Source: Clostridia bacterium
GTDB taxonomy: Bacteria > Bacillota > Clostridia > Christensenellales > Aristaeellaceae
NCBI GenBank assembly: GCA_024404275.1
Contig: JAKSQG010000032.1
Location: 1-13,189 of the forward strand
Reading direction: 5' to 3'
DNA length: 13,189 nucleotides
Positions 1 to 13,189 of the stretch are shown piece after piece. The position numbers were made by a program, and so were the translations under genes. Below the pieces are notes generated by a model, which saw nothing but the letters and a program-made list of their open reading frames with translations, searched no databases and was not told the origin of the DNA. How positions within the stretch are numbered: position 1 is the stretch's first letter; every line of letters begins with the position of its first letter.

Positions 1-362
1 TGATGCGCATGACCAAAGCCTCCATGCTGGAGGTGCTGGGCAGCGATTACATCCGCATGGCGCGCTCGAAAGGCGTCAAGGAACGCAGCATCATCATGAA
101 GCACGCCTTCCGCAACGCGCAGCTGACCGTCATCACTGTGATCGGTCAGGGCTTTATCAGCGCGCTGGCGGGCGCCGCCGTGGTGGAGCAATTGTTCAAC
201 ATCCCCGGTATCGGTTCCCTGATGGTCAACTCCATCGAAAAGCGTGACTACCAGACCATTCAGGCCATTACGCTGCTGGTCGCCATGCTCAATGTACTCA
301 TCAACCTGATCATCGACCTGATCTACGGCTGGGCGGATCCCCGCATCCGCCTCAATGACTGA
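1..362 (+). CDS. Peptide/nickel ABC transporter permease, DppB/OppB type (5'-truncated by window edge)
   Basis: The reading frame is open from the window start to TGA at 360-362. The translated tail contains the EAA-type loop region (SDYIRMARSKGVKERSIIMKHAFRNA) and the family-typical C-terminus (IDLIYGWADPRIRL). It sits directly upstream of a DppC-like permease and two DppD/F-like ATPases. Confidence 0.85.
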   Translation, partial: MRMTKASMLEVLGSDYIRMARSKGVKERSIIMKHAFRNAQLTVITVIGQGFISALAGAAVVEQLFNIPGIGSLMVNSIEKRDYQTIQAITLLVAMLNVLINLIIDLIYGWADPRIRLND

Positions 363-379
363 GGGAGGAGGACAGAACC

Positions 380-1306
380 ATGCAGAATAATACCGCCTCT
401 TTTCAGGATAAAGCGGAGCTGAAGCGCATCCGCCGCCGTCTTTCCCGTGAGCAGCATTCGCTGACGCTGCGCCGTTTTCTGCGCAACAAAGTCTCGCTTC
501 TCGGTACCGTCATTGTCGTTCTGATGCTGCTGATCGCCATTTTTGCCCCGCTCATCTGCCGCTCTCTGGGCGTTGACCCCTACACCGCCGTTGTCAAGGA
601 CCGCCTCAAGGCCCCCCTTGACCCCACCGCCACCGTGCGCCATCTGTTTGGTACCGACAACATGGGCCGCGATGTGTTTGCCCGTGTACTGTACGGTGCC
701 CGCATCTCGATGACCGTCGGTTTCCTCGTCGGCACCATCTCCGGGCTGATCGGCATGGCGCTGGGTCTGTACGCCACCACCAGCAAACGGCTGGACAACC
801 TGCTCATGCGCATCTGCGACGGTCTCAAGGCCATCCCCAACATTCTGCTTGCCATCACGCTGATGGCGGTGCTGGGCAGCAACATGCGCAACGTCATCAT
901 CAGCCTGACCATCGTGGCCATTCCCGGTGTCGCCCGCATTGCCCGCTCGCAGGCGCTGCTGGTGCGTGAGCAAACCTATATTGAAGCCATGGACGCCGTC
1001 GGTGCCGGTCATACCCGCATTTTGTGGCGTCACATCATGCCCAACATCCTCTCGCAGGTGATCGTGCAGATGACCTTCAGCTTCGCCTCCGCCATCATCT
1101 CCGAGGCCTCCCTCAGCTTCCTCGGTGCCGGCATCCCCGACCCCGAACCCAGCTGGGGCGGCATGCTCAACCTCGCCCGCGGCTATGTCTACAAGGGCTG
1201 GTGGATGATCATTTTCCCCGCGCTGTTCACCATGCTGTCCGTACTGGGCTTCAACCTGTTCGGTGACGGCTTGCGCGATCTGCTCGATCCCCTGTCAGTG
1301 CGCTGA
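380..1306 (+). CDS. Peptide/nickel ABC transporter permease, DppC/OppC type
   Basis: ATG at 380 is preceded by a GGAGGAGG run (364-371). The 308 aa product has an N-terminal TM helix, then LFGTDNMGRDVFARVLYGARISM, the typical OppC N-terminal signature. The EAA loop is YIEAMDAVGAGHTRILWRHIMPN. The C-terminus NLFGDGLRDLLDP is family-typical. Confidence 0.9.
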   Translation: MQNNTASFQDKAELKRIRRRLSREQHSLTLRRFLRNKVSLLGTVIVVLMLLIAIFAPLICRSLGVDPYTAVVKDRLKAPLDPTATVRHLFGTDNMGRDVFARVLYGARISMTVGFLVGTISGLIGMALGLYATTSKRLDNLLMRICDGLKAIPNILLAITLMAVLGSNMRNVIISLTIVAIPGVARIARSQALLVREQTYIEAMDAVGAGHTRILWRHIMPNILSQVIVQMTFSFASAIISEASLSFLGAGIPDPEPSWGGMLNLARGYVYKGWWMIIFPALFTMLSVLGFNLFGDGLRDLLDPLSVR

Positions 1307-1321
1307 GAAGGAGGAAGAGCA

Positions 1322-2320
1322 ATGAAAGAAAAGATCCTTCAGGTACGGGAGCTGACCACCAGCTTCAAAACGGACCGCGGTATGCTCAAAGCCATCGACG
1401 GCGTCTCCTTCGATGTGTATAAGGGCGAAATCCTGGGCATCGTGGGCGAAAGCGGCTGCGGCAAAAGCGTGACCAGCCAGTCTGTCATGCGCCTGTATGA
1501 TGAAAAATACGCCGTCCGCTATTCGGGCAGCGTCAAGCTGGAAGACCGTGAGCTGTTTGAAATTCCCTATAAAAAAATGCAGGATATCCGCGGCGCTGAA
1601 ATATCGATGATCTTTCAGGACGCGCTGTCCTCTCTGAACCCCGTGCTGCGCATCAGCGACCAGATCATGGAGCCGCTGCGCATCCACCAGCACATGAGCC
1701 GCAAGGAAGCCTATCAGAAGGCCATCGAAATGCTGCGTCTGGTCGGCATCCCCGCCCCCGAAAAGCGGGTGGACCAGTATCCGCACGAACTGTCCGGCGG
1801 CATGCGCCAAAGGGTCATGATCGCCATCGCCCTCGCCTGCCGTCCCAAGCTGCTCATTGCTGATGAGCCCACCACCGCGCTGGATGTGACCATTCAGGCG
1901 CAGATCATGGAGCTGATTGTGGAATTGAACCGCCAGCTGGATATGGGCGTCATGCTCATCACCCATGACCTGGCCGTGGTGGCGCAGACCTGCAGCCGCG
2001 TGGTGGTCATGTATCTGGGACAGATCGTGGAAGAAGCCGATGTGCAAACGCTTTTTGCCGAGCCGCTGCACCCCTACACCCACGGTCTCATGGCCTCCAT
2101 CCCCCGCCTGACGGGACAGCGCAGCGACCGGCTGTACATGATCCCCGGCGTGGTGCCGCTGCTCAATCAGATTCCCACCGGCTGCCGCTTCGCCCCGCGC
2201 TGCCCCTATGCCGATGAGCGCTGCCGTCAGCAGATGCCCGACCTCACCGCCTGCGGTGCCGAGGGACACAAGGTGCGCTGCTGGAATCCCGAAGCCGCCG
2301 CGAAAGGAGCCGAAGCATGA
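1322..2320 (+). CDS. Peptide ABC transporter ATP-binding protein, DppD/OppD type
   Basis: RBS GAAGGAGG lies upstream of ATG 1322. The motifs present are Walker A GESGCGKS, signature LSGGMRQR, Walker [13 protein letters not shown] and H-loop ITHD. The oligopeptide-transporter C-terminal extension is present (HPYTHGL ... [14 protein letters not shown]). Confidence 0.93.
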
Positions 2321-3294
2321 GCGAAAAACCCATTGTACTGGAAGCCGAAAATGTCGCCACCTGGTTTCCCATCCGCGGTGCCATGGGACGCGTGGTCAAC
2401 CAGGTCAAGGCGGTGGACGGCGTCAGCCTGTGCCTTCGTCAGGGCGAGACCTACGGTCTTGTGGGCGAAAGCGGCTGCGGAAAAAGCACCCTCGGGCGCA
2501 CGCTGATCCGGCTGCTGGAGCCCACCTCCGGCAAGGTGAGGCTCTTTGGCGAGGACATCACCCATCTTTCCGCCAAGGAAATGCTGCGTTTCCGCAAGGA
2601 TATCCAGATCGTTTTTCAGGATCCCTATACCTCGCTGGACCCCCGTCAAAGGGTGGGCAGCATGCTGATGGAGATCCTCAAAATCCACAATATCGGCGCC
2701 ACCTCCGATGAGCGCATGGCCATCGCCATGGAAACGCTCACGCAGGTCGGCCTGCGCACCGAGCATTTTTACCGCTATCCGCATGAGTTTTCCGGCGGTC
2801 AGCGTCAGCGCATCGTGCTTGCCCGAGCGCTGATTCTGGGGCCCAAGATCGTGGTATGCGACGAGCCCGTTTCCGCACTCGACGTTTCCATCCAGTCGCA
2901 GATCATCAACCAGCTGTGCGACCTGCGCGATCAGAAGGGCCTGTCCTACCTGTTCATCTCCCACGATATGAGCGTCGTCCGCTATATTTCCGACCGTGTG
3001 GGCGTCATGTATCTGGGGCATCTGGTGGAGGAAGCCCCCACGGATGAGATCTTCGAGCATCCCCTGCACCCCTACACGCGTACGCTGCTTTCCGCAGTGC
3101 CCTCCATCGATCCGAATGCCGGCGGCGACCGCATCCTGCTGCAGGGCGACCCGCCCTCCCCCATCGATCCGCCCTCCGGCTGCGTGTTCCACACACGCTG
3201 TCCCTATGCCCGCCCCGAATGCGCGCAGAACGTCCCCTCCCTTGAGGAGGTGCGCAGCGGTCATCAGGTCGCCTGCCCCTACGCGAAAGCATAA
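2317..3294 (+). CDS. Peptide ABC transporter ATP-binding protein, DppF/OppF type
   Basis: The start overlaps the upstream stop (ATGA at 2317-2320). The motifs present are Walker [10 protein letters not shown], signature FSGGQRQR, Walker B IVVCDEPVSALD and H-loop ISHD. The C-terminal HPYTRTLL ... CVFHTRCPYARPEC domain is present. The gene ends in TAA at 3292-3294. Confidence 0.93.
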   Translation: MSEKPIVLEAENVATWFPIRGAMGRVVNQVKAVDGVSLCLRQGETYGLVGESGCGKSTLGRTLIRLLEPTSGKVRLFGEDITHLSAKEMLRFRKDIQIVFQDPYTSLDPRQRVGSMLMEILKIHNIGATSDERMAIAMETLTQVGLRTEHFYRYPHEFSGGQRQRIVLARALILGPKIVVCDEPVSALDVSIQSQIINQLCDLRDQKGLSYLFISHDMSVVRYISDRVGVMYLGHLVEEAPTDEIFEHPLHPYTRTLLSAVPSIDPNAGGDRILLQGDPPSPIDPPSGCVFHTRCPYARPECAQNVPSLEEVRSGHQVACPYAKA

Positions 3295-3300
3295 CTCCTC

Positions 3301-3342
3301 GCCCGTTCCCGTCAGAATTCTTTAACGGAACGGGCTTTTTTG
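3301..3342 (+). terminator. Rho-independent terminator of the peptide ABC operon
   Basis: Perfect 9-bp stem: GCCCGTTCC (3301-3309) pairs with GGAACGGGC (3327-3335). It is followed directly by TTTTTT (3336-3341), 7 nt after the DppF stop. Confidence 0.8.
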
Positions 3343-3344
3343 TA

Positions 3345-3373
3345 TTGAAAATGCCCGTGGGATATGTTATTCT
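3345..3373 (+). promoter_or_regulatory. Candidate sigma-A promoter for the CHR pair / oxidoreductase unit
   Basis: TTGAAA (3345-3350), a 17-nt spacer, then TATTCT (3368-3373) preceded by TGT (3365-3367), giving an extended -10-like TGnTATTCT. If real, transcription starts after the ATG at 3364, which favours ATG 3406 as the start codon. Confidence 0.4.
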
Positions 3374-3405
3374 TACCCCAAACCGACAACAAAGATGAGG
3401 CTGAA

Positions 3406-3975
3406 ATGAAACTACTCTCTGATCTGTTTTTGACCTTTACTAAGATCGGGCTGTTTACCTTCGGCGGCGGCTATGCCATGGTTCCCGTCATTGAGCACGC
3501 CTGTGTGGATCAAAAGCAGTGGATCACCCATGACGACATGATGAACATCACCGTCATCGCCGAATCCACTCCCGGACCCATCGCCATCAACTGCGCCACC
3601 TTTGTCGGATACCGTCAAAAGGGACTGATCGGAGCCATTGCCGCCACGCTTGGCATCGTGCTGCCCTCCCTGATGATCATTTTCCTCATCGCTCTGCTGC
3701 TGGACGGCTTTTTGGAAATCACCGTGATCCGGAATGCCTTCAAGGGCATCAAGCTGGCGGTCGGCCTTCTGATTCTGGATGCCGCCCTCCGCATGATCAA
3801 AAAGATGCCCAAAAAGCCGCTCCCGCGCCTCATCATGGGCGGCACCGCCCTCATGATGACGGTCATCACTTTCTTTTCCCTCCGTTTTTCCTCCGTCGCC
3901 CTGCTCCTGACCGCCGGGCTCATCAGCCTGCTGCTGTATGCCTTCCCGAAACAAAAAGGGGGAAGCGCCTCATGA
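3406..3975 (+). CDS. Chromate ion transporter (CHR) family protein, half-size subunit 1
   Basis: The CHR hallmarks are FGGGYAMVPVIEH and ITVIAESTPGPIAIN, followed by several hydrophobic helices. ATG 3406 has GAGG (3397-3400) 5 nt upstream. The track's longer start at 3364 lacks an RBS and would lie inside the putative promoter. Confidence 0.85.
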   Translation: MKLLSDLFLTFTKIGLFTFGGGYAMVPVIEHACVDQKQWITHDDMMNITVIAESTPGPIAINCATFVGYRQKGLIGAIAATLGIVLPSLMIIFLIALLLDGFLEITVIRNAFKGIKLAVGLLILDAALRMIKKMPKKPLPRLIMGGTALMMTVITFFSLRFSSVALLLTAGLISLLLYAFPKQKGGSAS

Positions 3976-4529
3976 TTCTGCTGCAGCTTCTGTGGGGCTT
4001 TTTCAAAGTCGGCTGTTTTTCCTTCGGCGGCGCCTATGCCGCCATCCCGCTCATCCGGGAGGTCGTCCTTTCCTACGGCTGGCTGAGCGATGAAATGCTG
4101 ACGTATATGATCGCCGTCAGCGAAAGCACCCCCGGTCCCATCATGGTCAACCTCGCGACCTATGTCGGCACCGCCGAGGCGGGTCTGGCGGGCGCCCTGA
4201 CCGCCACCTTTGCCGTGGTGCTGCCATCCTTTCTGCTGGTGCTCCTCCTCACGGCCGTGCTTTCCAGAGTCATCAAAAATCCGTATGTGCAGGCTGTGCT
4301 GCGAGGGCTCAAGCCCTGCATGATCGGCATCATCCTGGTCACCGGCGGCCGCATGATCATTCAAAATCTGTTTGAAGAGAGCGGCACCTTCGATCCCCGC
4401 GCACTCCTCATCACCGCCCTGCTGGCCTGTGTTTATTTCAGCCGCGGCCGGCTGTTCAAAAAAAGCCTTTCGCCCATCCTGCTGATCGTTCTTGCCGCCC
4501 TGCTCGGCATGATCGTATACGCCCTATAA
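3972..4529 (+). CDS. Chromate ion transporter (CHR) family protein, half-size subunit 2
   Basis: ATGA overlap with the upstream gene (3972-3975). It carries a second copy of the CHR hallmarks (FSFGGAYAAIPLIREVV and IAVSESTPGPIMVN). The arrangement matches the known short-chain CHR gene pairs of Firmicutes. Confidence 0.85.
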   Translation: MILLQLLWGFFKVGCFSFGGAYAAIPLIREVVLSYGWLSDEMLTYMIAVSESTPGPIMVNLATYVGTAEAGLAGALTATFAVVLPSFLLVLLLTAVLSRVIKNPYVQAVLRGLKPCMIGIILVTGGRMIIQNLFEESGTFDPRALLITALLACVYFSRGRLFKKSLSPILLIVLAALLGMIVYAL

Positions 4530-4550
4530 AATCAATGATGGAGGTTCCCC

Positions 4551-5756
4551 ATGCAATACAGAATCGACCCCAGATCGGGCAACCGCCTGTCCGTCCTCGG
4601 CTTTGGCTGCATGCGCTTTGGAGGGGGCGACCTGGTCAGCTCCTTCAGCGGCAAATTTGACCGTGCCAAGGCCGAAAAACTGATCACCTCCGCGGTCGAC
4701 ATGGGCATCAACTATTTTGACACCGCCTATCTTTATTCCGGCAGCGAGGACATTCTCGGTCAGACGCTGGAAAAGCACGCCCTGCGCGACAAGGTGTACA
4801 TTGCCACCAAGCTGCCGCTCATCCTGCTGCGCAAAAAAGAAGATATCGAACGCATTTTTCAATAGGAGCTCAAGCGCCTGCGCACCGACCACATCGATTA
4901 TTATCTGATGCACATGCTGCCCGATGTGCAGGAGTGGAACAAGCTTTGCTCCTGGGGCATTCTGGACTGGCTCCGTGAGAAAAAAGAGAGCGGCATCCTC
5001 CGTCAGGTGGGCTTCTCCTTCCACGGCCCCTGCAAGGATTTTCTGGCACTGCTGGAGGTCTATGACTGGGATTTCTGCCAGATCCAGCTCAACTATTCCG
5101 ATGAAAACTATCAGGCGGGTCTCACAGGGCTCAAGGCTGCCCACGAAAAAGGGCTGCCCGTCATGATCATGGAGCCGCTGCTGGGCGGCAAGCTGGTCAA
5201 CGGTCTGCCCAAAGCCGCGGAAGAAAGATTTCAGCAGGCCGTCCCCGGCAGAAGCAACGCCGAATGGGGCTTGCGCTGGGTGTGGAACCGCCCCGAGGTC
5301 ACGCTGCTGCTGAGCGGCATGAACGAGATGGAACAGCTGGAAGCCAACGTTGCCTGCGCAGGTCAGGCAGCTCCCGATATGCTCAGCGAGGAAGAGCAGG
5401 CTGCCTACAGGGACGTCAAGCAGATCTTTGCCGATTCCTACAAGGTACACTGCACGGGCTGCCACTACTGCATGCCCTGCCCCGCGGGCGTCAACATTCC
5501 CGGCTGCTTCTCCGCCTACAACGCCCGCAGCGCCGTGGATAAAAACACAGGCCGCATGCAATACCTGATGACCACTTTGATGGGCAACAACCCAAGCTAC
5601 GCCAGCCTTTGCAAAAAGTGCGGCAAGTGCGAGGCACACTGCCCGCAGCATCTTGAGATCCGCAAGGAGCTGGAAAACGTCAGCGCCGAAATGGAGGGCG
5701 TGATGTTCAAAGGCGCCCGCGCCGGTCTCAAGCTCATGCGCAAATTCAAAAAATGA
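4551..5756 (+). pseudogene. Aldo/keto reductase fused to a 2x[4Fe-4S]-type C-terminal domain, interrupted by a single in-frame TAG at 4863-4865 (pseudogene under code 11, or amber read-through)
   Basis: GGAGG lies 6 nt upstream of ATG 4551. The N-terminal piece reads MQYRIDPRSGNRLSVLGFGCMRF...INYFDTAYLYSGSE...IATKLP. The frame then reads FQ-TAG-ELKRLRTDHIDYYLMHML with no frame change (4551 and 4908 are in the same phase). This continues the classic AKR xLxRLxTDxIDxYxxH motif. The C-terminus has CTGCHYCMPCP and CKKCGKCEAHCP (5451-5645). Total length is 401 codons, normal for this family. Confidence 0.85.
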
Positions 5757-5764
5757 TCCTTCAC

Positions 5765-5808
5765 AGCGTTTCCCCTTCGTCTGTTCAGGCGGGGGAAGCG
5801 CTTTTTTC
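5765..5808 (+). terminator. Rho-independent terminator after the oxidoreductase gene
   Basis: AGCGTTTCCCC (5765-5775) pairs with GGGGAAGCGCT (5792-5802) with one G-U pair. It is followed by the T-run 5802-5807. Confidence 0.7.
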
Positions 5809-5852
5809 TATCCGGCAAAATGGAAAATATCCAAAAAGAAACCGATTGTGCA

Positions 5853-5881
5853 TTGACAAAATGGCAAGGTTTTATTATAAT
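5853..5881 (+). promoter_or_regulatory. Consensus sigma-A/sigma-70 promoter of the sugar ABC / GH65 locus
   Basis: TTGACA (5853-5858), an exactly 17-nt spacer, then TATAAT (5876-5881). It lies about 58 nt upstream of the SBP start codon, in the only sizeable AT-rich intergenic region of the window. Confidence 0.75.
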
Positions 5882-5938
5882 TGTGATAAGGTTGAGCGTT
5901 AAACCTGCCAATTCCATACATTTCGAGGAGGTCTGTCC

Positions 5939-7366
5939 ATGAACAGGTTCGTTAAGCTCGTTTCTCTGTTGCTTGCCGCGGCCCTGCTGCTTTCCGCCCT
6001 GCCCTGCACCCTTGCCGAGGAGGTCATCGATGCCGATCTGAACTGCACGATCACCCTGGGCAACTGGCCGGCCGATACCGCGCCTCAGGCTGAAAAGGAC
6101 CTGTTCCTGGGCTATCAGGCCACGATGGCCAAACAGTACCCCAACGTGACCCTGGTGCCCGACTACTACTCCTACACGCTGAGCAGCTATGTGCCCATGG
6201 CCAAGGGCGGCACGGCCCCCAGCATCTTCCAGCCCCCCTTCACCGATCCGCAGCTGCTCATCAGCCAGCATCTGGTCGGCGATGTCACCGAGGCACTGCA
6301 AAATGCCGGCGTGCTGGATAAGTTCAGCCCCAGCTATGTTGAGATGCTGGCGGGCGATGACGGCCGCATCTACGGTCTGCCCCGCGACGGCTATGTGCTG
6401 GGTCTGCACATCAACATCGATCTGTTCCGTGAAGCCGGCCTGATGACCGAAGAAGGCCTGCCCATGTATCCCACCACCCTGCAGGAGCTGGCCGAATACG
6501 GTCAGATCATCCGTGAAAAGACCGGCAAGGCCGGTCTGGTGTTCCCCGCCAGCGAGACCTACGGCGGCTGGCTGTTCACCAACATCGCGTGGAACTTTGG
6601 CTGCGTGGGCGAAAGCGCCCTCGAATATCAGGATGAAGACGGCCGCTGGGTGTGCAACTTCACCTCTCCCGAGTGCATCGCCGCCATGGAATACATGCGT
6701 GACCTGCGCTGGAAGTACGATATCCTGAACGCCGACGCCACCACCTCCGACTGGGCCAGCTCCCACACCTCTCTGGGTACGGGCGAGGCGGCCATGAACT
6801 TCGGTGCCGATGACTGCGTTGACCAGCCCACCGCCAACAAGGGTCTGCCGGTCGACAGCTTCGCGCTGGTTCCCTTCCCCGCCGGTCCCGCGGGCCGCTA
6901 CGCCCTCGCCGGCGGCACCTGCTACATGTTTGCCCCCAACATCACTGCCGATCAGGGCACCGCGCTGATGGCCTACCTGAAGGTGCTGGGCAAGCTGCCC
7001 TTCCTCGATGACGCCATCGTCGCCGGCATGCGTGCCGACTATGCCGCCAAGCGTGACCGCGGCGCCCCCGTGCTGCCCGCCATCAGCGCCTGGAATGACG
7101 AGGACTACAATGCCGCCAAGCAGGCCGTCATTGACGAATTCTGCAACGTCGATATGCGTTTGTACAACGATTTCTTCGATTCCATCTCCGAAGGCACCAT
7201 CACCCTCAAGAGCGAAGAACCCGTCTTTGCCCAGCAGCTGTATCGTGAGCTGACCTCCGTGGTGCAGCGCATGATCACCCGCGAGGGCGCCGATGTGGAA
7301 AAGGCCCTGCGCAAGGCCGAGGAATCCTTCCAGGAGTATCTGGACGACGAGATCAACGACTATTGA
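5939..7366 (+). CDS. Carbohydrate ABC transporter extracellular solute-binding protein (CUT1 / family 1 SBP)
   Basis: RBS GAGGAGG (5925-5931) lies 7 nt before the ATG. The N-terminal signal peptide is MNRFVKLVSLLLAAALLLSALPCTLAEE. At 475 aa it has the size and composition of sugar SBPs. Two MalF/MalG-type permease genes follow immediately. Confidence 0.88.
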   Translation: MNRFVKLVSLLLAAALLLSALPCTLAEEVIDADLNCTITLGNWPADTAPQAEKDLFLGYQATMAKQYPNVTLVPDYYSYTLSSYVPMAKGGTAPSIFQPPFTDPQLLISQHLVGDVTEALQNAGVLDKFSPSYVEMLAGDDGRIYGLPRDGYVLGLHINIDLFREAGLMTEEGLPMYPTTLQELAEYGQIIREKTGKAGLVFPASETYGGWLFTNIAWNFGCVGESALEYQDEDGRWVCNFTSPECIAAMEYMRDLRWKYDILNADATTSDWASSHTSLGTGEAAMNFGADDCVDQPTANKGLPVDSFALVPFPAGPAGRYALAGGTCYMFAPNITADQGTALMAYLKVLGKLPFLDDAIVAGMRADYAAKRDRGAPVLPAISAWNDEDYNAAKQAVIDEFCNVDMRLYNDFFDSISEGTITLKSEEPVFAQQLYRELTSVVQRMITREGADVEKALRKAEESFQEYLDDEINDY

Positions 7367-7381
7367 TGACTGTATGATCCT

Positions 7382-7416
7382 GCGCCGGCGGTGAGTGTCA
7401 TCGCCGGCGCCTTTTC
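7382..7416 (+). terminator. Intra-operon GC-rich stem-loop after the SBP gene (partial terminator / mRNA stabiliser)
   Basis: Perfect 9-bp stem: GCGCCGGCG (7382-7390) pairs with CGCCGGCGC (7402-7410), with an 11-nt loop. It is followed by CTTTTC, a short and interrupted U tract, so full termination is unlikely. Confidence 0.5.
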
Positions 7417-7447
7417 AAGGCAAAGCGACTTTTCCGGAGGAATGACC

Positions 7448-8359
7448 ATGAGCCAAACGAAGGTAATGCGAAAACTGAGCGGCGCCAGGTTTGCCGAAAA
7501 CAGCAAAGCCTGGCTGATCATGCTGCCCAGCCTGATCCTGATGCTGTTTTTTGTGTGGGAGCCGCTGTTTGAAAGCGTGCGCATGAGCCTGTACAAGACC
7601 CGCAATGTTGAGCTGGTGCGCTACATCGGCTTTGACAACTACATCAGCGTCATGGGCAAGGATGACTTTATTCAGGCCCTGCTCAACACCTTCTCGTACA
7701 CCTTCTGGTCGCTGATCATCGGCTTTCTGCTGCCGGTGGTGCTGGCCATGATCATCGGCGAGACCCGCCGCAGCAAGGGCATCTTCCGCACCATTGCCTA
7801 CCTGCCCAACATGCTGCCCGGTCTTGCGGTCATCATTCTGTGGTCCTCCTTCTTCTCTGCCGAAAAATCCGGCGTGCTCAACATTCTGCTCAGCACCATC
7901 GGTGTCTCCCCACAAACCTATCTGACCAGGGCGGAATGGGTCATTCCCATCATCATCATCATCGCCACCTGGAAGGGCGCGGGCGCCACGGCGCTCATCT
8001 ACATGGCCAGCATGGCCGGCGTCAGCCCCGAGCTGTACGAAGCGGCCGCCATCGACGGCGCCACGGTGCTGCAGCGCGTATGGCACATCCTGCTGCCCTC
8101 CATCCGCAAGCTGATGGGCACGCTGCTCATTTTGCAGATCATTTCCGTGTTCCAGATCATGTATGAGCCCATGGTTCTGACCAAGGGCGGCCCCGACAAC
8201 GCCTCCCTGTCCCTGATGCAGCTGATGTGGCAGTACGCCTTCGGCGGCAGCATGAACTACGGCAAGGCCTCCGCCGTGGCGGTCATCGTCACCGGCATCC
8301 TGCTGGTCATGACGCTCATTCATTCCTACTTTGACCGCAAAGAATCCAGTTGGGACTGA
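7448..8359 (+). CDS. Carbohydrate ABC transporter permease (MalF/UgpA-like, CUT1)
   Basis: GGAGG (7436-7440) lies 7 nt before ATG 7448. ATG 7442 is an alternative start, and the track's GTG 7391 sits inside the hairpin. The EAA loop is YEAAAIDGATVLQRVWHILLPSIRK, and there are multiple TM helices. Confidence 0.9.
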   Translation: MSQTKVMRKLSGARFAENSKAWLIMLPSLILMLFFVWEPLFESVRMSLYKTRNVELVRYIGFDNYISVMGKDDFIQALLNTFSYTFWSLIIGFLLPVVLAMIIGETRRSKGIFRTIAYLPNMLPGLAVIILWSSFFSAEKSGVLNILLSTIGVSPQTYLTRAEWVIPIIIIIATWKGAGATALIYMASMAGVSPELYEAAAIDGATVLQRVWHILLPSIRKLMGTLLILQIISVFQIMYEPMVLTKGGPDNASLSLMQLMWQYAFGGSMNYGKASAVAVIVTGILLVMTLIHSYFDRKESSWD

Positions 8360-8375
8360 GAAAGGAGCAATGCAT

Positions 8376-9245
8376 ATGAAAAAGGTTCAGCGCACCGGCG
8401 TGATCCGCGAATACGACCTGCATTCCCGCTCCGTCAAGGTCCTGTACGGCTTTGTGCTCTTTCTGTGCCTGGTCATGACGGTCATCGCCCTCTTCCCCCT
8501 CATCTGGGTGTGTCTGGCGGGCTTCAAGGACTTAAAGGAGTTTGTTTCCAGCACCTCTCTGCTGCCCTCTGACTTCAATTTCGGCATGTTCACCACCACG
8601 TGGGATCAATTGGGCATTGCCAAGAACTATCTCAACTCGCTGTTTTCCGTCGCCGGCAGCGTGGTATGCGCCATCGTGTTCAACGGTCTGCTGGGCTACG
8701 GTCTGGGCATCTTAAAGCCCAAGGGCTACGGCGTGGTCAAAAAGCTGGTCATGCTGTCGCTGCTGCTGCCCACCACCATCAGCATCGTTCCCCTGTTTAT
8801 GAACATTCAAAAGCTGGGGCTTGGCAACTCCTTCCTGCCGCTGTGGCTGTCCTTTGGCGCCAACGCCATGTATGTGGTGCTGTTCATCCAGTTCTTTGAG
8901 TCGCTGCCCCATTCCATCATCGAAGCCGCGCGCATCGACGGTGCCAACCAGCTGCAAACCTTCTTCAGCATCGTGCTGCCCCTGTCCAAACCCATCTGCA
9001 CCGTCATTGCCATCTTTGCCGTCAACGCCGCCTGGTCCGACTTCCTGCTGCCTTATCTGGTGCTGCGCGGCGGACAGCTGCAGACGGTCATGGTGCGCCT
9101 GTTTGTGTTCTCCACCGAGCAGACCGTCAACGCCGATACCATGATGCGTTCCGTGGTCTTCTCGATGATCCCGCCCATCATTTTGTTCTTTATCTTCCAG
9201 AAGCAGCTGACCGAGAACGCTGTCTCCGTCGGCATCAAGGGCTGA
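8376..9245 (+). CDS. Carbohydrate ABC transporter permease (MalG/UgpE-like, CUT1)
   Basis: AGGAG (8363-8367) lies 8 nt before ATG 8376. The track start 8331 would overlap the upstream gene and has no RBS. The EAA loop is IEAARIDGANQLQTFFSIVLPLSKP. Confidence 0.9.
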   Translation: MKKVQRTGVIREYDLHSRSVKVLYGFVLFLCLVMTVIALFPLIWVCLAGFKDLKEFVSSTSLLPSDFNFGMFTTTWDQLGIAKNYLNSLFSVAGSVVCAIVFNGLLGYGLGILKPKGYGVVKKLVMLSLLLPTTISIVPLFMNIQKLGLGNSFLPLWLSFGANAMYVVLFIQFFESLPHSIIEAARIDGANQLQTFFSIVLPLSKPICTVIAIFAVNAAWSDFLLPYLVLRGGQLQTVMVRLFVFSTEQTVNADTMMRSVVFSMIPPIILFFIFQKQLTENAVSVGIKG

Positions 9246-9271
9246 TCCCCCATTCAACGAAAGAGGTATTT

Positions 9272-11566
9272 ATGGCAAAGGTAGCGGATATTTACTTTGC
9301 GGTCGACCCGTGGAAGATCATCGAGGATGGTTTTGATCCCGCCTATTCCCGCGTAAGCGAGTCTGTTTTCTCTTTGGGCAACGAAACGCAGGGCGTACGC
9401 GGCTGCTTTGATGAAGGCGGAAGCGTTGACAGCCTGCGCGGTGCCTACACCAACGGCGTGTTCGATATGGAGCAGCTCAGCCGCTCCTATAAAGGCATCA
9501 TTGATAAAACGCACTTCATGGTGCCCTCCGCCGAATGGCTGATGACCGAAATCGTGCTGGACAATGAAAAGCTGGATCTTGGCAAAGTCCGTTTTGAGGA
9601 TTTTACCCGCGTATTGGATATGCGCGCCGGCACGCTGACCCGCAGCTTTGTGTGGACGACCGAAAGCGGCAAGCAGCTCAAATTGACCTTCCTGCGCTTT
9701 ATGGATATGGTGCACCGTGAGCGCGCCTATCAGCGCATCACGATGGAAGCGCTCAACTTTGACGGCGAAGTCGCCTTCACGACCGGTCTTTCCTTTGACG
9801 CCGTGCATGAGGGCTACCGCAAGTGCTTCTGGCAGAATGCCCGCGTGGAAGCCGAAAGCAGCCGTATGCTGCTCAAAGCCCGCACCACCGCCTCCAATCA
9901 GGAGGAGTTTGCCGGTGCGCTGGTCTCCCTGCCCGGTGAAATCACAATCAGCAAAAATGAAAAGACCGCCGCTCTCCGCTGCAATGTGCCGCTCACCCGC
10001 GGTCAGCCCGTCAGCCTTGACAAGCGTGTAGTCGTGGTGTTTGACGGCACCGAGGGCGATGCCCTGTGGCAGAACGGTCTGACCGCTTTGGAGGCCTGCG
10101 CCGCCGTCTCGCTGGACGAAGCCATGGAGGCACAGCGGAAATATTGGGAAGCCTACTGGCAGACCTCCGATATTGATATCATTCCCGCCGGGGACGACAC
10201 CGCCGAGCTGGTCGCCGCATAGCAGCAGGGCATCCACTTCTGCTCCTTCCAGCTGGCGCAGACCTACAACGGCGGCAGCATGAAGCACAACATCGGCGCC
10301 AAAGGTCTGACAGGCGAAGCCTACAACGGTCACGCCTTTTGGGATACCGAAGCCTGCTGCCTGCCCTTCTATCTGTTCAACAATCCCGCCGCCGCCCGCG
10401 ACCTGCTGCGCTACCGCTACAACACGCTGCCCATGGCCATCGAGCGTGCCAAAATGCTGGATTGCAAGGGCGCCTGCTACCCCATCGCCACCCTGAACGG
10501 CGATGAGGCCTGTGCGCTGTGGCAGCACGCCAGCCTGCAGCTGCAGCCCTCCACCGCCGTCGCCTACGGCATCTGGCACTATGTACACCTGACCGAGGAC
10601 AAGGATTTCCTGTGGCATTACGGTGCCGAGATCCTGCTTCAGATCGCCCGCTTCATGGCCAGCCGTGTGGAAAAAAGCAGCCGCACCGGCAAGTACGGCT
10701 TCTACGGCGTCATGGGTCCCGATGAGTTCCACATGATGGTCAACAACAACGCCTACACCAACTATATGGGTCTGCGTACGCTGCAGTACGCCGCAGAAGT
10801 GATGACCGCCATGGAAAAGGAGCAGCCCGCCCTCTGCGCCGCCCTGATGGAAAAGACCGCCCTCACCAAAGAGGAGATTGCCCGCTGGCAGCACATTGCC
10901 GACAACATGTACATTCCGCAGGCCGAAAACGGCATCATCGAGCAGCATGACGGCTTCTTCGATCTGCCGCATACCGAGATCAACGACATTCCCGTCAGCG
11001 AGTTCCCGCTGTATGAGCACTGGTCTTACGACCGCATCTACCGCTCCGACATGATCAAGCAGCCCGACGTGCTGATGTTCCTGTACCTGTACAACTCCTC
11101 CTTCAGCGAGGAGATCAAGCGCATCAACTACGATTTCTATCAGGCGCGTACCATCCACGAGTCCTCCCTGTCGCCCGCCATCCACTCCATTCTGGCGGCA
11201 GAGCTGGACAAGATGGACGAAGCCGTTTCCTTCTTCGGCTACGCCACACGTTTGGATCTGGACAACTACAACCGCAATACCCGTGAAGGTCTGCACATTA
11301 CCAGCATCGCCATGGCGTGGTGCGGCATCGTGTACGGCTTTGCCGGTCTGCGCAGCGATGCCGAAAAGCTGATCTTTGCCCCGCGCCTGCCCGAGCGCTG
11401 GAGAAGCCTCACCTTCTCCGTCATGTACCGCGGCCGTGTCATCCGCCTGTGCATGGAGGCAGACAAAACAAGCTTCCGCCTCACGCAGGGTGACCCGCTG
11501 GAGGTGCTCGTCTACGGCAAGCCCGTTACACTGACCAACAAGGAACAGCTCATCCCCCGCAAATAA
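9272..11566 (+). pseudogene. Glycoside hydrolase family 65 enzyme (likely an alpha-glucoside phosphorylase), interrupted by a single in-frame TAG at 10220-10222 (pseudogene under code 11, or amber read-through)
   Basis: AGAGG RBS precedes ATG 9272. The N-terminal GH65 domain reads DPWKIIEDGFDP...FSLGNETQGVRG. The frame reads LVAA-TAG-QQGIHFCSFQLAQTY...IGAKGLTGEAYNGHAFWDTE with no frame change (9272 and 10280 are in the same phase). The catalytic-acid motif is VMGPDEFH (Glu codon 10724-10726). The phosphate-site-like motif is HESSLS (11156-11173). Total length is 764 codons, normal for GH65. Confidence 0.88.
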
Positions 11567-11577
11567 CATCACCGTTC

Positions 11578-11607
11578 GATCCGCCTGCATCCCTGCGGGC
11601 GGATTTT
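11578..11607 (+). terminator. Weak intergenic stem-loop between the two GH65 genes
   Basis: ATCCGCCTGC (11578-11587) pairs with GCGGGCGGAT (11594-11603) with one G-U pair and a 6-nt loop, followed only by TTT. It is more likely a processing or stability element or a leaky terminator than a full stop. Confidence 0.35.
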
Positions 11608-11623
11608 GACAAGGAGGACAACG

Positions 11624-13189
11624 ATGGATCAATGGAAGCTTGAACGGGAAGGATTTGACCCCGCTCATGTAGTGACCGACGGCAACCGCTTCCTGTGCGC
11701 CAACGGCTATATGGGGCTGCGCGGCGTGGTCGAGGAGGGGCAGTCCCCGGACCTGCCCGCCATCACCCTCGCCGGTGTGTATGACCGCAACGGCGATAAA
11801 TGGCGCGAGCCTGTCAACGCCCCGCAGTGCCTGTTTGTGCGGGCTGTGCTGAACGGCAAAGCGATGGCACTCCGTGAAGCCGCGCCGCTGCGCCATACCT
11901 GCGGCATCGATTATCGTCACGGTGTCTATCACCGCGATACCGATTTTGGTCCGCTGCGTCTGGAAAGCGAACGCTTTGTCTCGATGGATCAAACGCACCT
12001 GCTGGCGGACCGCATGCGCATCACCTGCACCGAGGACGGCGAGCTGGAGCTGACCTGCGGCATCTCCGCCGACATCTGGGACATCAACGGTCCGCACCTG
12101 TTTGACTTTTCCATGGAATGCGATGAAGCTTTGTCCGTCACCGCCGTCACGGGTCAGCTGGGCATCACCGTGTCCGCGGCGCAGACCGTCACGCTGGATG
12201 CTGACGCAGAGGTTCTGTACAAGCAGAATGACGCGGGTTCCTTCAAGGTGTTCCGTCTGCCCGTAAAGGCAGGGGAAACGCTTGTTTTGTCCTCCGTTGC
12301 CGCCGTTTACACCTCACTGGATACCGAGGACCCCAAAGCCGCCGCCCGTGCACTGTGCCTTGGCGAAGCCGCCCGCGGCTTTGATGCCTGCCTTGCCGCG
12401 CACACCACCGCGTGGGAAAAGGTGCATGCCCTTTCCACCATCGAAGCGGAAGGGGATGAGGCCGCCGTGCAGGGGCTCCACGCCAGTCAGTATCATCTGA
12501 ACAGCATCGCCCCGCGCCATGCGGACAGCATGTCCATCCCCGCCCGCGGACTGTCGGGACAGACCTACAAGGGCGCCATCTTCTGGGATTCGGAAATCTT
12601 CTTTTTCCCCATGTTTGTGCACACACAGCCCGAAGTCGCCCGCGCGCTGCTGCGTTACCGCATCGAAACGCTGCCCGGTGCCCTCAAGAAGGCCAAAGGC
12701 TACGAGTACCGCGGCGCCTTCTATGCCTGGGAAAGTCAGGAGGGCGGCGAAGAGGGCTGCACCGATTTCAACGTGGTGGATGTGTTCACCCACCGCCCGG
12801 TGCGCACCTATTTCCGGGATAAGCAGATCCACATCAGCGCCGACATCGCCTACGCGCTGCGCAGCTATTATGAGATCACCGGCGACCGCTCCCTTCTGCA
12901 GGAGGGCGGTGCCGCCGTCATCCTTGAGTGCGCGCGCTTCTATATCAGCCGCGCTCAGCTGCGGGCAGACAAAACCGAGGTCGACTATCCCGATGTCATC
13001 GGTCCCGATGAATATCACGAGCGCGTCACCAACAATGCCTTTACCAACCGCATGATCCGCCACTGCATGGAAAGCGCCCTGCAGCTGGAAGACATCTTTG
13101 CCGATCAGCCCGACGAATTTGCCGCGCTGCTTCAAAGCCTCGATTACGCCGAGGACTGGCAGCGCCTCAAAAACCTCTGTCCGCGCATC
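11624..13189 (+). CDS. Second, divergent glycoside hydrolase family 65 protein (3'-truncated by window edge; not in the supplied ORF track)
   Basis: AAGGAGGA (11611-18) lies 6 nt before ATG 11624. I translated 522 codons by hand to position 13189 and found no stop. The motifs seen are MDQWKLEREGFDP...NGYMGLRG (N-domain), GLSGQTYKGAIFWDSE, YAWES and IGPDEYHERVTNNAFTN (catalytic-acid motif, Glu codon 13010-13012). Confidence 0.88.
   Translation, partial: MDQWKLEREGFDPAHVVTDGNRFLCANGYMGLRGVVEEGQSPDLPAITLAGVYDRNGDKWREPVNAPQCLFVRAVLNGKAMALREAAPLRHTCGIDYRHGVYHRDTDFGPLRLESERFVSMDQTHLLADRMRITCTEDGELELTCGISADIWDINGPHLFDFSMECDEALSVTAVTGQLGITVSAAQTVTLDADAEVLYKQNDAGSFKVFRLPVKAGETLVLSSVAAVYTSLDTEDPKAAARALCLGEAARGFDACLAAHTTAWEKVHALSTIEAEGDEAAVQGLHASQYHLNSIAPRHADSMSIPARGLSGQTYKGAIFWDSEIFFFPMFVHTQPEVARALLRYRIETLPGALKKAKGYEYRGAFYAWESQEGGEEGCTDFNVVDVFTHRPVRTYFRDKQIHISADIAYALRSYYEITGDRSLLQEGGAAVILECARFYISRAQLRADKTEVDYPDVIGPDEYHERVTNNAFTNRMIRHCMESALQLEDIFADQPDEFAALLQSLDYAEDWQRLKNLCPRI

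Follow-up and report, generated by a model that had tools for sequence, protein, structure and literature searches.

Probable lineage-wide reassignment of UAG from stop to sense codon, most likely glutamate, in a clade of Clostridia

The window analysed here, a stretch of 13,189 nucleotides that makes up an entire contig of an uncultured gut Clostridia MAG, Christensenellales-like to judge from its nearest relatives, contains two genes that are each interrupted by a single in-frame TAG, and this raises the question of whether these are broken genes or whether UAG has ceased to be a stop codon in this lineage. An earlier note on the window had proposed amber read-through or reassignment, and had weighed this against nonsense pseudogenes and assembly errors. 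The features on which the question turns are as follows.

360..11566, forward strand: span of the 11 complete gene ends, eight being TGA and three TAA
4551..5756, forward strand: AKR and 4Fe-4S oxidoreductase gene (AKR), 401 codons, its single in-frame TAG being codon 105 in translation
4860..4862, forward strand: codon before the AKR TAG, CAA (CAG in a sister species), with A directly 5' of the TAG
4863..4865, forward strand: TAG in the AKR gene; GAG (Glu) at sister-species locus L004
9272..11566, forward strand: first GH65 glycoside phosphorylase/hydrolase gene (GH65-1), 764 codons, its single in-frame TAG being codon 317 in translation
10217..10219, forward strand: codon before the GH65-1 TAG, GCA (GCC in a sister species), with A directly 5' of the TAG
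10220..10222, forward strand: TAG in GH65-1; Glu in 120/120 closest homologues, GAG and GAA in sister species
11624..13189, forward strand: second GH65 paralogue (GH65-2), cut by the contig end
12899-12901, forward strand: codon 426 of GH65-2, CAG in the window species and an in-frame TAG in sister species B

Both TAGs lie where the earlier note had placed them, and translation agrees with the gene lengths it gave; reading through either TAG reveals no frameshift and no further stop, and both interrupted genes are intact, with predicted full-length products of 401 aa and 764 aa. Its claim that family motifs run across the TAGs stands for the AKR gene, in which a single Pfam match (PF00248, residues 16-269) is unbroken over the TAG and is followed by Fer4 domains; an orthologue of 401 aa that lacks the TAG is present in a sister species (L004:3363-4568). 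The same claim fails for GH65-1, which has GH65 N, m and C domains, because its TAG falls in the linker between GH65N (18-256) and GH65m (325-683), and continuity over this TAG rests on the 120 full-length homologues, of approximately 764 aa each, rather than on a Pfam domain. The ATGs located 14 and 19 codons 3' of the TAGs (4908 and 10280) indeed have no Shine-Dalgarno sequence, but the assertion that every real start has one was too broad; most real starts in the window have GGAGG-like sites, but none is obvious ahead of the gene that starts at 3364. In the NCBI annotation, the TAG-split fragments appear as separate hypothetical proteins. None of the 11 complete gene ends is TAG, all of them being of the two kinds that are read by RF2, and the earlier note was right to regard this as weak statistics: TAG terminators are also absent from the seven nearest outgroup genomes (0/73), as compared to 35/544 in wider relatives, and the 0/11 count therefore carries almost no weight alone. 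The interruption of 2 of the 12 genes in the window, however, exceeds chance.

The same TAGs recur in other strains. That in the AKR gene is present in the window strain and at L001, L002 and L003, and that in GH65-1 in the window strain, L002 and L003, in independent assemblies from other samples that comprise an NCBI MAG, ENA MEGAHIT contigs and Logan unitigs obtained from separate runs and pipelines. Synonymous differences around the TAGs establish that these are distinct strains. Among the TAG-carrying strains, segregating sites 3' of the TAG number 37 synonymous and 10 non-synonymous in the AKR gene (pN/pS 0.073), and 30 synonymous and 8 non-synonymous in GH65-1 (pN/pS 0.075); pairwise dN/dS was also computed. 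The probabilities of these downstream patterns under neutrality are 7e-17 and 1e-13, and pN/pS is the same in uninterrupted neighbour genes. The parts downstream of both TAGs have thus been under strong purifying selection since the TAGs arose.

At least two sister species, represented by GCA_045599485.1 and the CALCTW01 MAG, share the trait. Our sample of this three-species clade, drawn entirely from MAGs or metagenome contigs, comprises approximately 100 kb and 104 genes, and contains the following further in-frame TAGs.

L004:13624: GH65-2; CAG in the window species, GAA/Glu in outgroups
L004:6102: TPR-DUF6273 gene, inside the Pfam DUF6273 match
L085 at 3706 and L089 at 3816: histidine kinase, at different positions in two species
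L006:4213: ABC-2 permease (ABC2_membrane_6), inside the Pfam match; also in L086, L087, L088 and L149
L151:7345: purB, a housekeeping gene
L153 at 2234: PfkB kinase; also in L154

The earlier note had asked for a count of terminal against in-frame TAGs, and over these 104 genes it favours a sense reading: nine in-frame TAGs are found but no in-frame TGA or TAA, and the genes end with TGA (63), TAA (39) or TAG (2). In both TAG-ended ORFs the frame remains open for another 115 and 165 codons, leaving no genuine TAG terminator among the 104 genes; termination in the clade uses UGA and UAA only. TAG occurs as a sense codon at about 0.3 per 1000 codons, and none of the clade sites is common to different species. 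The recurrence of TAGs in strains and sister species, together with the downstream selection, supports the original proposal of read-through or reassignment.

No convincing in-frame stop that is spanned by homology was found in about 78 loci (~1.3 Mb) of more distant relatives, in which GH65 identity is 77% or lower, and TAG is a true terminator in some of them (L023, L058, L148). The nearest outgroups have no TAG terminators, yet no in-frame TAGs either. Given the codon usage of the clade, nonsense mutations reach TAG more readily than either of the other stops, and the probability that seven of seven in-frame stops would be TAG by chance is 0.014-0.03; the type of codon alone is hence weak evidence. 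The interrupted genes are chromosomal, have housekeeping and metabolic functions, and retain conserved synteny with standard-code relatives.

Which amino acid might be inserted is suggested by the aligned residues. In nearest relatives Glu is aligned with TAG at five of the eight informative sites, and at two of these, in GH65-1 and the ABC-2 permease, it is found in 120/120 homologues. The AKR site has Glu in the nearest homologues (P0121, P0122 and P0197), site HK-61 of the histidine kinase is GAA in a sister species, and the PfkB site is Glu in the closest PDB homologue. At the GH65-2 site outgroups have Glu and the sister Gln, the purB site is Gln (CAG) in conspecific strains, site HK-357 is Ser in nearest relatives, and Tyr or Lys is aligned at none. 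Random nonsense mutation would place Glu at four or more of six sites with a probability of 0.001-0.013. TAG codons arise repeatedly, mostly from GAG, at species-specific positions. In distant solved GH65 enzymes the GH65-1 position is occupied by Asp, Ser or Asn, which implies that Glu is not strictly required there. The sequence context is also biased: in 9 of the 11 cases A stands directly 5' of the TAG, whereas A makes up 7% of third codon positions. Synonymous changes have created this A at three sites, and in the AKR gene the CAG GAG of L004 corresponds to CAA TAG in each of the four window-species strains. Such a preference points to context-dependent decoding efficiency. RNA structure 3' of the TAGs is not unusual (z from -0.6 to +0.1), which speaks against site-specific recoding.

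We consider it probable that UAG has been reassigned across this lineage, no longer acting as a stop but read as sense, with glutamate as the most likely amino acid. Glutamine is less likely than glutamate as the meaning of UAG, and a tRNA-Gln(CUA) that arose from tRNA-Gln(CUG) through a single change in the anticodon seems an unlikely agent, even though CAG is the aligned codon at the purB and GH65-2 sites, the E. coli pseudouridine kinase PsuK has Gln at the PfkB motif position, CAG becomes TAG by one transition, and glutamine is the commonest natural UAG reassignment (PMC8629427, PMC13462651). CAG and GAG are used at similar frequencies (29.9 and 28.6 per 1000) and C-to-T changes are favoured, so that this reading predicts TAG sites aligned mostly with Gln, contrary to the Glu majority and the two sites at which Glu is universal. 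Slow and ambiguous near-cognate reading (Gln, Glu, Lys, Tyr) after RF1 loss or weakening, with no dedicated suppressor tRNA, is distinctly improbable. Survival of TAG at tolerant sites or in favourable contexts would fit its rarity, its species-specific positions, the mixed residues (Glu, Gln, Ser), the A before TAG, and the outgroups that lack TAG in either role. Inefficient and heterogeneous decoding, however, should be costly at all-Glu positions of enzymes under strong purifying selection and in housekeeping purB. Moreover, near-cognate UAG reading in RF1-free E. coli yields mainly Gln, Tyr and Lys, and neither Tyr nor Lys is seen here.

Ordinary nonsense mutations, giving pseudogenes or split genes with downstream halves started at internal ATGs, are very unlikely. 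The separate NCBI entries, the accessibility of TAG and the nearby ATGs are in keeping with them, but they are contradicted by purifying selection acting 5' as well as 3' of the TAGs among TAG-carrying strains, by 9 to 11 TAG events in 104 genes with no TGA, TAA or frameshift (and essentially none in relatives), by the lack of genuine TAG terminators, by the Glu enrichment, by the synonymous changes to A, by internal ATGs that lack ribosome-binding sites, and by TAGs within single Pfam domains (AKR, ABC2_membrane_6 and DUF6273). Sequencing or assembly errors, or minor alleles, have a negligible probability; these are MAG data and G-to-T is a known oxidative-damage artefact, but identical TAGs occur in distinct strains and independent assemblies. 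Genome-wide reading of UAG as pyrrolysine (pylT, pylS, pylBCD), in the style of archaeal code 34, is hardly credible, although low TAG usage and TAGs within ordinary enzymes would fit. Archaeal code 34 and conditional bacterial Pyl decoding (Acetohalobium, Bilophila) resemble our clade in that UAG is depleted as a stop, lies within ordinary genes and needs no downstream insertion element. To our knowledge, methylamine methyltransferases and one serine dehydratase are the only bacterial proteins from which Pyl has been reported. UAG is read as Pyl genome-wide in archaea (10.1101/2024.09.30.615893) and Pyl machinery exists in some Bacillota (PMC12626013), but in those archaea TAG replaces many codons with no consensus residue (10.1101/2024.09.30.615893). 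The dominance of Glu in our clade speaks against Pyl and favours a standard amino acid, a bulky lysine derivative being an unlikely substitute for an acidic residue at all-Glu sites. Methylamine methyltransferase and pyl genes were not observed in the ~100 kb of clade sequence, a weak point given this small sample.

Under the preferred reading of UAG as glutamate, decoding would be carried out by a tRNA with anticodon CUA, perhaps derived from tRNA-Glu(CUC) by a single anticodon base change. The clade loci examined contain no tRNA genes of any kind, and hence no tRNA-CUA, and a pattern scan of JGI metagenomes and IMG/VR for a tRNA-Glu-type anticodon arm with CUA returned no tRNA. GlnRS is absent from most Bacillota and, if these Clostridia also lack it, a non-discriminating GluRS would accept a tRNA altered at position 36. 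RF1 would be lost or disabled, leaving RF2 as the sole termination factor, and UAG decoding may vary in efficiency with context. The route was probably codon capture; TAG stops are already almost absent in the nearest outgroups.

If true, this would be the first natural bacterial code in which TAG, not TGA, has lost its stop meaning; known bacterial stop reassignments all concern UGA (PMC8629427, PMC13462651). Table 4 (UGA to Trp in Mycoplasmatales, some endosymbionts and Eggerthellaceae) and table 25 (UGA to Gly in Gracilibacteria and Absconditabacteria) likewise give a stop codon a sense meaning throughout a monophyletic group of bacteria, with in-frame "stops" in conserved genes, a codon dropped as terminator, and genes split by standard annotation. 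They differ in the codon, and with UAG the expected dispensable factor is RF1 rather than RF2; moreover, the window lineage is not AT-rich (59% GC), has rich carbohydrate metabolism and no sign of reduction, and still uses the reassigned codon very rarely. Gut phages of the code 15 type (crAss-like, Lak and others) share both the habitat, the animal and human gut, and a sense UAG, presumably through a suppressor tRNA, but they read it as Gln, whereas the residue pattern here favours Glu over Gln and the genes are chromosomal rather than phage-borne. Peritrich ciliates (table 30) and Blastocrithidia nonstop also read UAG as Glu, the tRNA-Glu anticodon being one step from a stop; those are nuclear codes involving eRF1 in which UAA and UAG change together, whereas UAA terminates 39 of our 104 clade genes. 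The same inferred end state, with no UAG terminators, termination by RF2 only and UAG assignable to a tRNA, has been reached in the laboratory with amber-recoded E. coli that lacks RF1 (C321.deltaA and later strains with one stop codon, PMC11903333), whereas the window lineage would have arrived at it naturally, by evolution, with a putative RF1 loss.

The window is essentially one entire 13.19-kb contig, on which 12 co-oriented genes are present:

3' end only, Opp-type permease gene (oppB homologue), with a second permease and two ATPases
two chromate-transporter halves
4551-5756, aldo/keto reductase fused to a 4Fe-4S domain (AKR)
sugar ABC system, comprising a binding protein and two permeases (operon 5939-13189, with the GH65 genes)
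9272-11566 and 11624-13189, two tandem GH65 genes (GH65-1 and GH65-2)

The two in-frame TAGs described in the earlier note were verified at 4863-4865 in AKR and at 10220-10222 in GH65-1, and reading through them yields unbroken proteins of 401 and 764 residues. No ribosome-binding site precedes the ATGs at 4908 and 10280, with which the downstream fragments begin, and all 11 complete gene ends in the window use TGA (8) or TAA (3) rather than TAG, again as had been noted. The claim that GH65 homology runs across the TAG is borne out by full-length homologues, although the TAG itself sits in the linker between two Pfam domains. Public records store AKR and GH65-1 as fragments (4551-4865, 4908-5756, 9272-10222, and 10280-11566), the two pieces of GH65-1 being separate NCBI "hypothetical proteins" (MCQ2453602.1 and MCQ2453603.1) and the two genes together making four such entries. 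The sugar ABC importer is followed by the two GH65 paralogues (5939-13189) in an order that is kept across dozens of Christensenellales-like MAGs. The closest solved relative of GH65-1 is a kojibiose phosphorylase (6w0p), and this operon probably serves the uptake and phosphorolysis of an alpha-glucoside disaccharide. An Rfam search of the window returned no match.

Using the split gene products, we reached three independently assembled loci of the window species (species A) from other samples, namely L001 (Logan SRR21150821), L002 (ENA ERZ27247129), and L003 (Logan SRR27361835). All three carry TAGs identical to those in the window while differing from it at many sites, mostly synonymous, and because every strain compared has the TAGs, these differences must postdate their origin. 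Downstream of the TAG, segregating sites number 37 synonymous against 10 non-synonymous in AKR (pN/pS 0.073; P(neutral) 7e-17) and 30 against 8 in GH65-1 (pN/pS 0.075; P(neutral) 1e-13). Such values match those of uninterrupted neighbour genes, for which pN/pS ranges from 0.00 to 0.06, so the segments beyond the TAGs are translated in frame into functional protein.

Further in-frame TAGs are present in two other species. Species B (GCA_045599485.1, contig JAZRWA010000009.1; loci L004 and L085) is the closest relative of the window species and has intact AKR and GH65-1 genes with GAG at both equivalent sites, but carries TAGs of its own. Its histidine kinase (508 codons) is 96% identical to that of species A, and the TAG is at codon 61 in one and at codon 357 in the other. 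Species C (CALCTW010000103.1, locus L006, together with L086-L088 and L149-L154) supplies three more sites, one of which, in purB, is a within-species polymorphism between strains with 99% nucleotide identity (TAG in L151, CAG in L149 and L150). The occurrence of a CAG/TAG polymorphism in a housekeeping gene (adenylosuccinate lyase) shows that sense TAGs are still arising. In total, the clade has nine solid TAG sites in eight gene families, all spanned by Pfam domains or full-length homologues, and the TAGs of AKR, GH65-1, and the ABC2_membrane_6 permease are kept in three to five independent assemblies.

Table. Solid in-frame TAG sites in the three species, with codons or residues at the equivalent positions.
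AKR, window 4863-4865 (species A): GAG in sister species; Glu in the three nearest homologues
GH65-1, window 10220-10222 (species A): Glu in 120/120 homologues; GAG and GAA in sister species
Histidine kinase, minus strand, L085 at 3706 (species B) and L089 at 3816 (species A): GAA in the partner species at codon 61; TCC (Ser) in the partner species at codon 357
GH65-2 (species B): Glu in outgroups; CAG in the window species
TPR-DUF6273 protein, TAG spanned by the Pfam domain (species B): uninformative (no PDB relative; only two plasmid homologues, distant at 31% and 28% identity, with Thr and Tyr at the TAG column)
ABC2_membrane_6 permease, TAG inside the domain, conserved in five assemblies (species C): Glu in 120/120 homologues
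PfkB kinase, in two assemblies (species C): Glu in the closest solved homologue (3kzh); Gln in E. coli PsuK
purB, L151:7345, codon 56, one strain only (species C): CAG (Gln) in conspecific strains

Among 104 genes of the three species, a sample of ~100 kb, the terminators are TGA (63), TAA (39), and TAG (2). Beyond the TAG, the reading frames of the two ORFs ending in it continue for another 115 and 165 codons, which makes these two TAGs probable sense codons as well. The same genes contain nine in-frame TAGs and no in-frame TGA or TAA, and frameshifts are likewise absent, TAG being the only type of lesion. The background was assessed in ~78 loci (~1.3 Mb) from GTDB representative genomes of relatives, in which a homology-spanning, frame-checked screen found no convincing in-frame stop. 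An initial all-against-all BLAST of ORFs, with each stop rendered as X, was swamped by alignments of non-coding "shadow" frames and could be used only once candidate frames were filtered by codon usage. Matches that suggested in-frame TGA or TAA proved to be junctions of adjacent same-frame genes with a ribosome-binding site between them, and the TAG/TAA "site" common to relatives L029, L035, and L017 looks like such a junction too. Two Mgla_MAG bins that are GTDB representatives (L040 and L043) were left out of the counts because they gave masses of spurious in-frame "stops", which we attribute to ambiguous bases translated to X. Length variation in NAGPA (253 to 341 aa) reflects start-codon calling and is not a TAG effect. 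Wider relatives use TAG as a terminator at low frequency (35/544), for example to end GH65-2 in L023 and L058, and also in L148; the last, the contig with the nearest AKR homologue, was discarded as a marker of the clade limit, since it comes from an unrelated organism of 46% GC in which TAG stops are normal. In the seven nearest outgroup genomes (L007-L012 and L073; 73-77% GH65 identity), none of the 73 called genes ends in TAG or contains one in frame. TAG seems to have been almost lost as a codon before it came back as sense in the three-species clade.

These observations bear on several explanations for the interrupted genes. Assembly or sequencing errors are ruled out by the presence of the same TAGs in independent assemblies of distinct strains, and the strong purifying selection, together with conservation across strains, rules out nonsense pseudogenes. 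Site-specific programmed recoding, whether by an SECIS- or PYLIS-like element or by a read-through signal, was rejected because no unusual RNA structure is seen when the 100 nt beyond five of the sites are folded (z-scores -0.58 to +0.10), and the TAG sites have no conserved 3' motif, an A directly 5' being their only common feature. Decoding thus appears to be global rather than site-specific. A region or prophage using phage code 15 does not fit either, in that the affected genes encode ABC transporters, GH65 enzymes, AKR, purB, a kinase, and a histidine kinase, in chromosomal synteny with standard-code relatives. It is very probable that this lineage reads UAG as a sense codon, and the read-through or reassignment proposed in the earlier note is supported by strain conservation, purifying selection, and the additional TAGs in sister species.

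As to its meaning, the eight informative sites divide into Glu (5), Glu-or-Gln (1), Gln (1), and Ser (1), a pattern that favours Glu, although the sites are too few for a formal Codetta-type assignment. Under the codon usage of these genes, Glu codons make up only 10-19% of single-step TAG precursors, and the probability of finding Glu at at least four of six sites is 0.001-0.013. The "invariant" Glu of GH65-1 is limited to the close family, since distant solved enzymes have Asp, Ser, or Asn there. Glutamine is the main alternative and has the purB site on its side; if UAG were read as Gln, however, most sites should stem from CAG, which is equally common and reaches TAG by the favoured C-to-T transition, and the observed sites do not. 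Pyrrolysine is disfavoured by the predominance of Glu, including two positions at which it is found in 120/120 homologues, whereas in archaea with the Pyl code (code 34) TAG replaces many residues with no consensus (10.1101/2024.09.30.615893). In ~100 kb of clade sequence, a small sample, neither pylT, pylS, and pylBCD nor a TAG in methylamine methyltransferase genes was seen. On these grounds glutamate is favoured as the fairly likely meaning of UAG.

Additional evidence that UAG is translated comes from the nucleotide that precedes it. At 11 sense TAGs (window 4860-4865 and 10217-10222, plus sites in L089, L085, L004, L151, L153, and L152), the base directly 5' is A in nine cases and G in two, with neither C nor T, even though bases at the third position of codons in the same genes are distributed as 50% C, 30% G, 14% T, and 7% A. 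For three sites, comparison with the sister species shows that a synonymous change in the codon before the TAG gave rise to the A (CAG to CAA, GCC to GCA, and CCG to CCA). Tetranucleotide counts in the window, L003, L089, L085, L004, L006, L152, L149, and L153 show that CTAG is strongly avoided in the clade loci (12 observed versus 154 expected; ratio 0.08) and TTAG is depleted (ratio 0.25), while ATAG and GTAG are slightly enriched. Restriction, repair, or a connection to the code change may lie behind this pattern. Avoidance of CTAG and TTAG explains the missing C and T, but not why A outnumbers G (9 to 2, where ~1 to 4 would be expected). This bias suggests selection on the efficiency of UAG decoding, which would then be context-dependent. 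This is a preference rather than a strict rule: in one strain the codon before the PfkB TAG reads GTT, not GTA.

The simplest decoder would be a tRNA with a CUA anticodon, to which tRNA-Glu(CUC) and tRNA-Gln(CUG) could each be converted by one base change. Most Bacillota lack GlnRS, and their non-discriminating GluRS accepts both C36 and G36; recognition by GatCAB would then settle whether Glu or Gln is inserted. The clade loci analysed contain no tRNA genes and hence no suppressor tRNA, and ARAGORN found no CUA tRNA on these loci or on those of relatives. When an anticodon arm of tRNA-Glu type carrying CUA was sought by exact pattern, the scans gave 52 JGI metagenome and 3 IMG/VR matches, all of them non-tRNA hairpins and uninformative either way. 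Exclusive use of UGA and UAA fits termination by RF2 alone, in which case release factor 1 (RF1) would be dispensable. The route would resemble codon capture, given the near absence of TAG terminators in the nearest outgroups, the low density of ~0.3 TAG per 1000 codons, and the lack of any site common to the species. Insertion of Glu by a dedicated tRNA combined with loss of RF1 is, in our judgement, a fairly likely arrangement. We lean slightly towards the complete picture, in which this clade of Christensenellales-like gut Clostridia would have a natural two-stop code with UAG read as Glu by a CUA tRNA derived from tRNA-Glu, RF1 would be dispensable, and decoding would be young, rare, species-variable, and context-dependent.

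In the literature searched, recorded bacterial stop reassignments involve UGA only (PMC8629427, PMC13462651), and reassignment of UAG is confined to phages, eukaryotes, organelles, and, as Pyl, archaea. UAG is read as Gln in phages, UAR as Glu in peritrich ciliates and Blastocrithidia, and 10.1101/2024.09.30.615893 describes genome-wide UAG-to-Pyl reassignment in archaea. A search of the literature on the genetic code and stop codons together with Christensenellales listed no paper naming this order. The proposed code of the clade is thus a stop-codon reassignment that matches no described bacterial code, and a bacterial UAG sense code would be a new class of bacterial code change. If correct, cellular prokaryotes would have here their first reassignment of UAG to a standard amino acid, observed early in codon capture, and that process would have a test case in a GC-rich genome without sign of reduction. 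Because the outgroups are nearly free of TAG stops and the rare TAGs differ among the three species, the order of codon loss, RF1 loss, and tRNA gain is directly testable. The clade would parallel, in nature, the RF1-free E. coli strains made by engineering and could be a source of naturally evolved amber-decoding parts; gut phages with TAG recoding would find in it a host able to read TAG already. Annotation with table 11 truncates or splits ~1 gene in ten in these MAGs, and heuristics based on coding density would miss TAG recoding of this kind.

L152:1-1722 (species C) has 43% GC in a genome that is otherwise 55-58% GC and contains a lipoprotein-like ORF of solute-binding type in which TAG is the sole "stop" before codon 388; this DNA was probably acquired horizontally, yet has a sense TAG all the same. 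Relative to L003, species B has an insertion at L004:15600-17300, between the 2-hydroxyacid dehydrogenase and the LacI regulator, which holds a TAG-interrupted hypothetical secreted protein, an HTH_3 regulator, and a second, partial copy (98 aa) of the dehydrogenase. In one strain of species C, L151:11600-14684 has a tyrosine integrase, a NikA-like gene, and TnpV beside guaA, where L149 has a HAD hydrolase and ABC-2 genes, a difference indicating insertion of, or replacement by, a mobile element.
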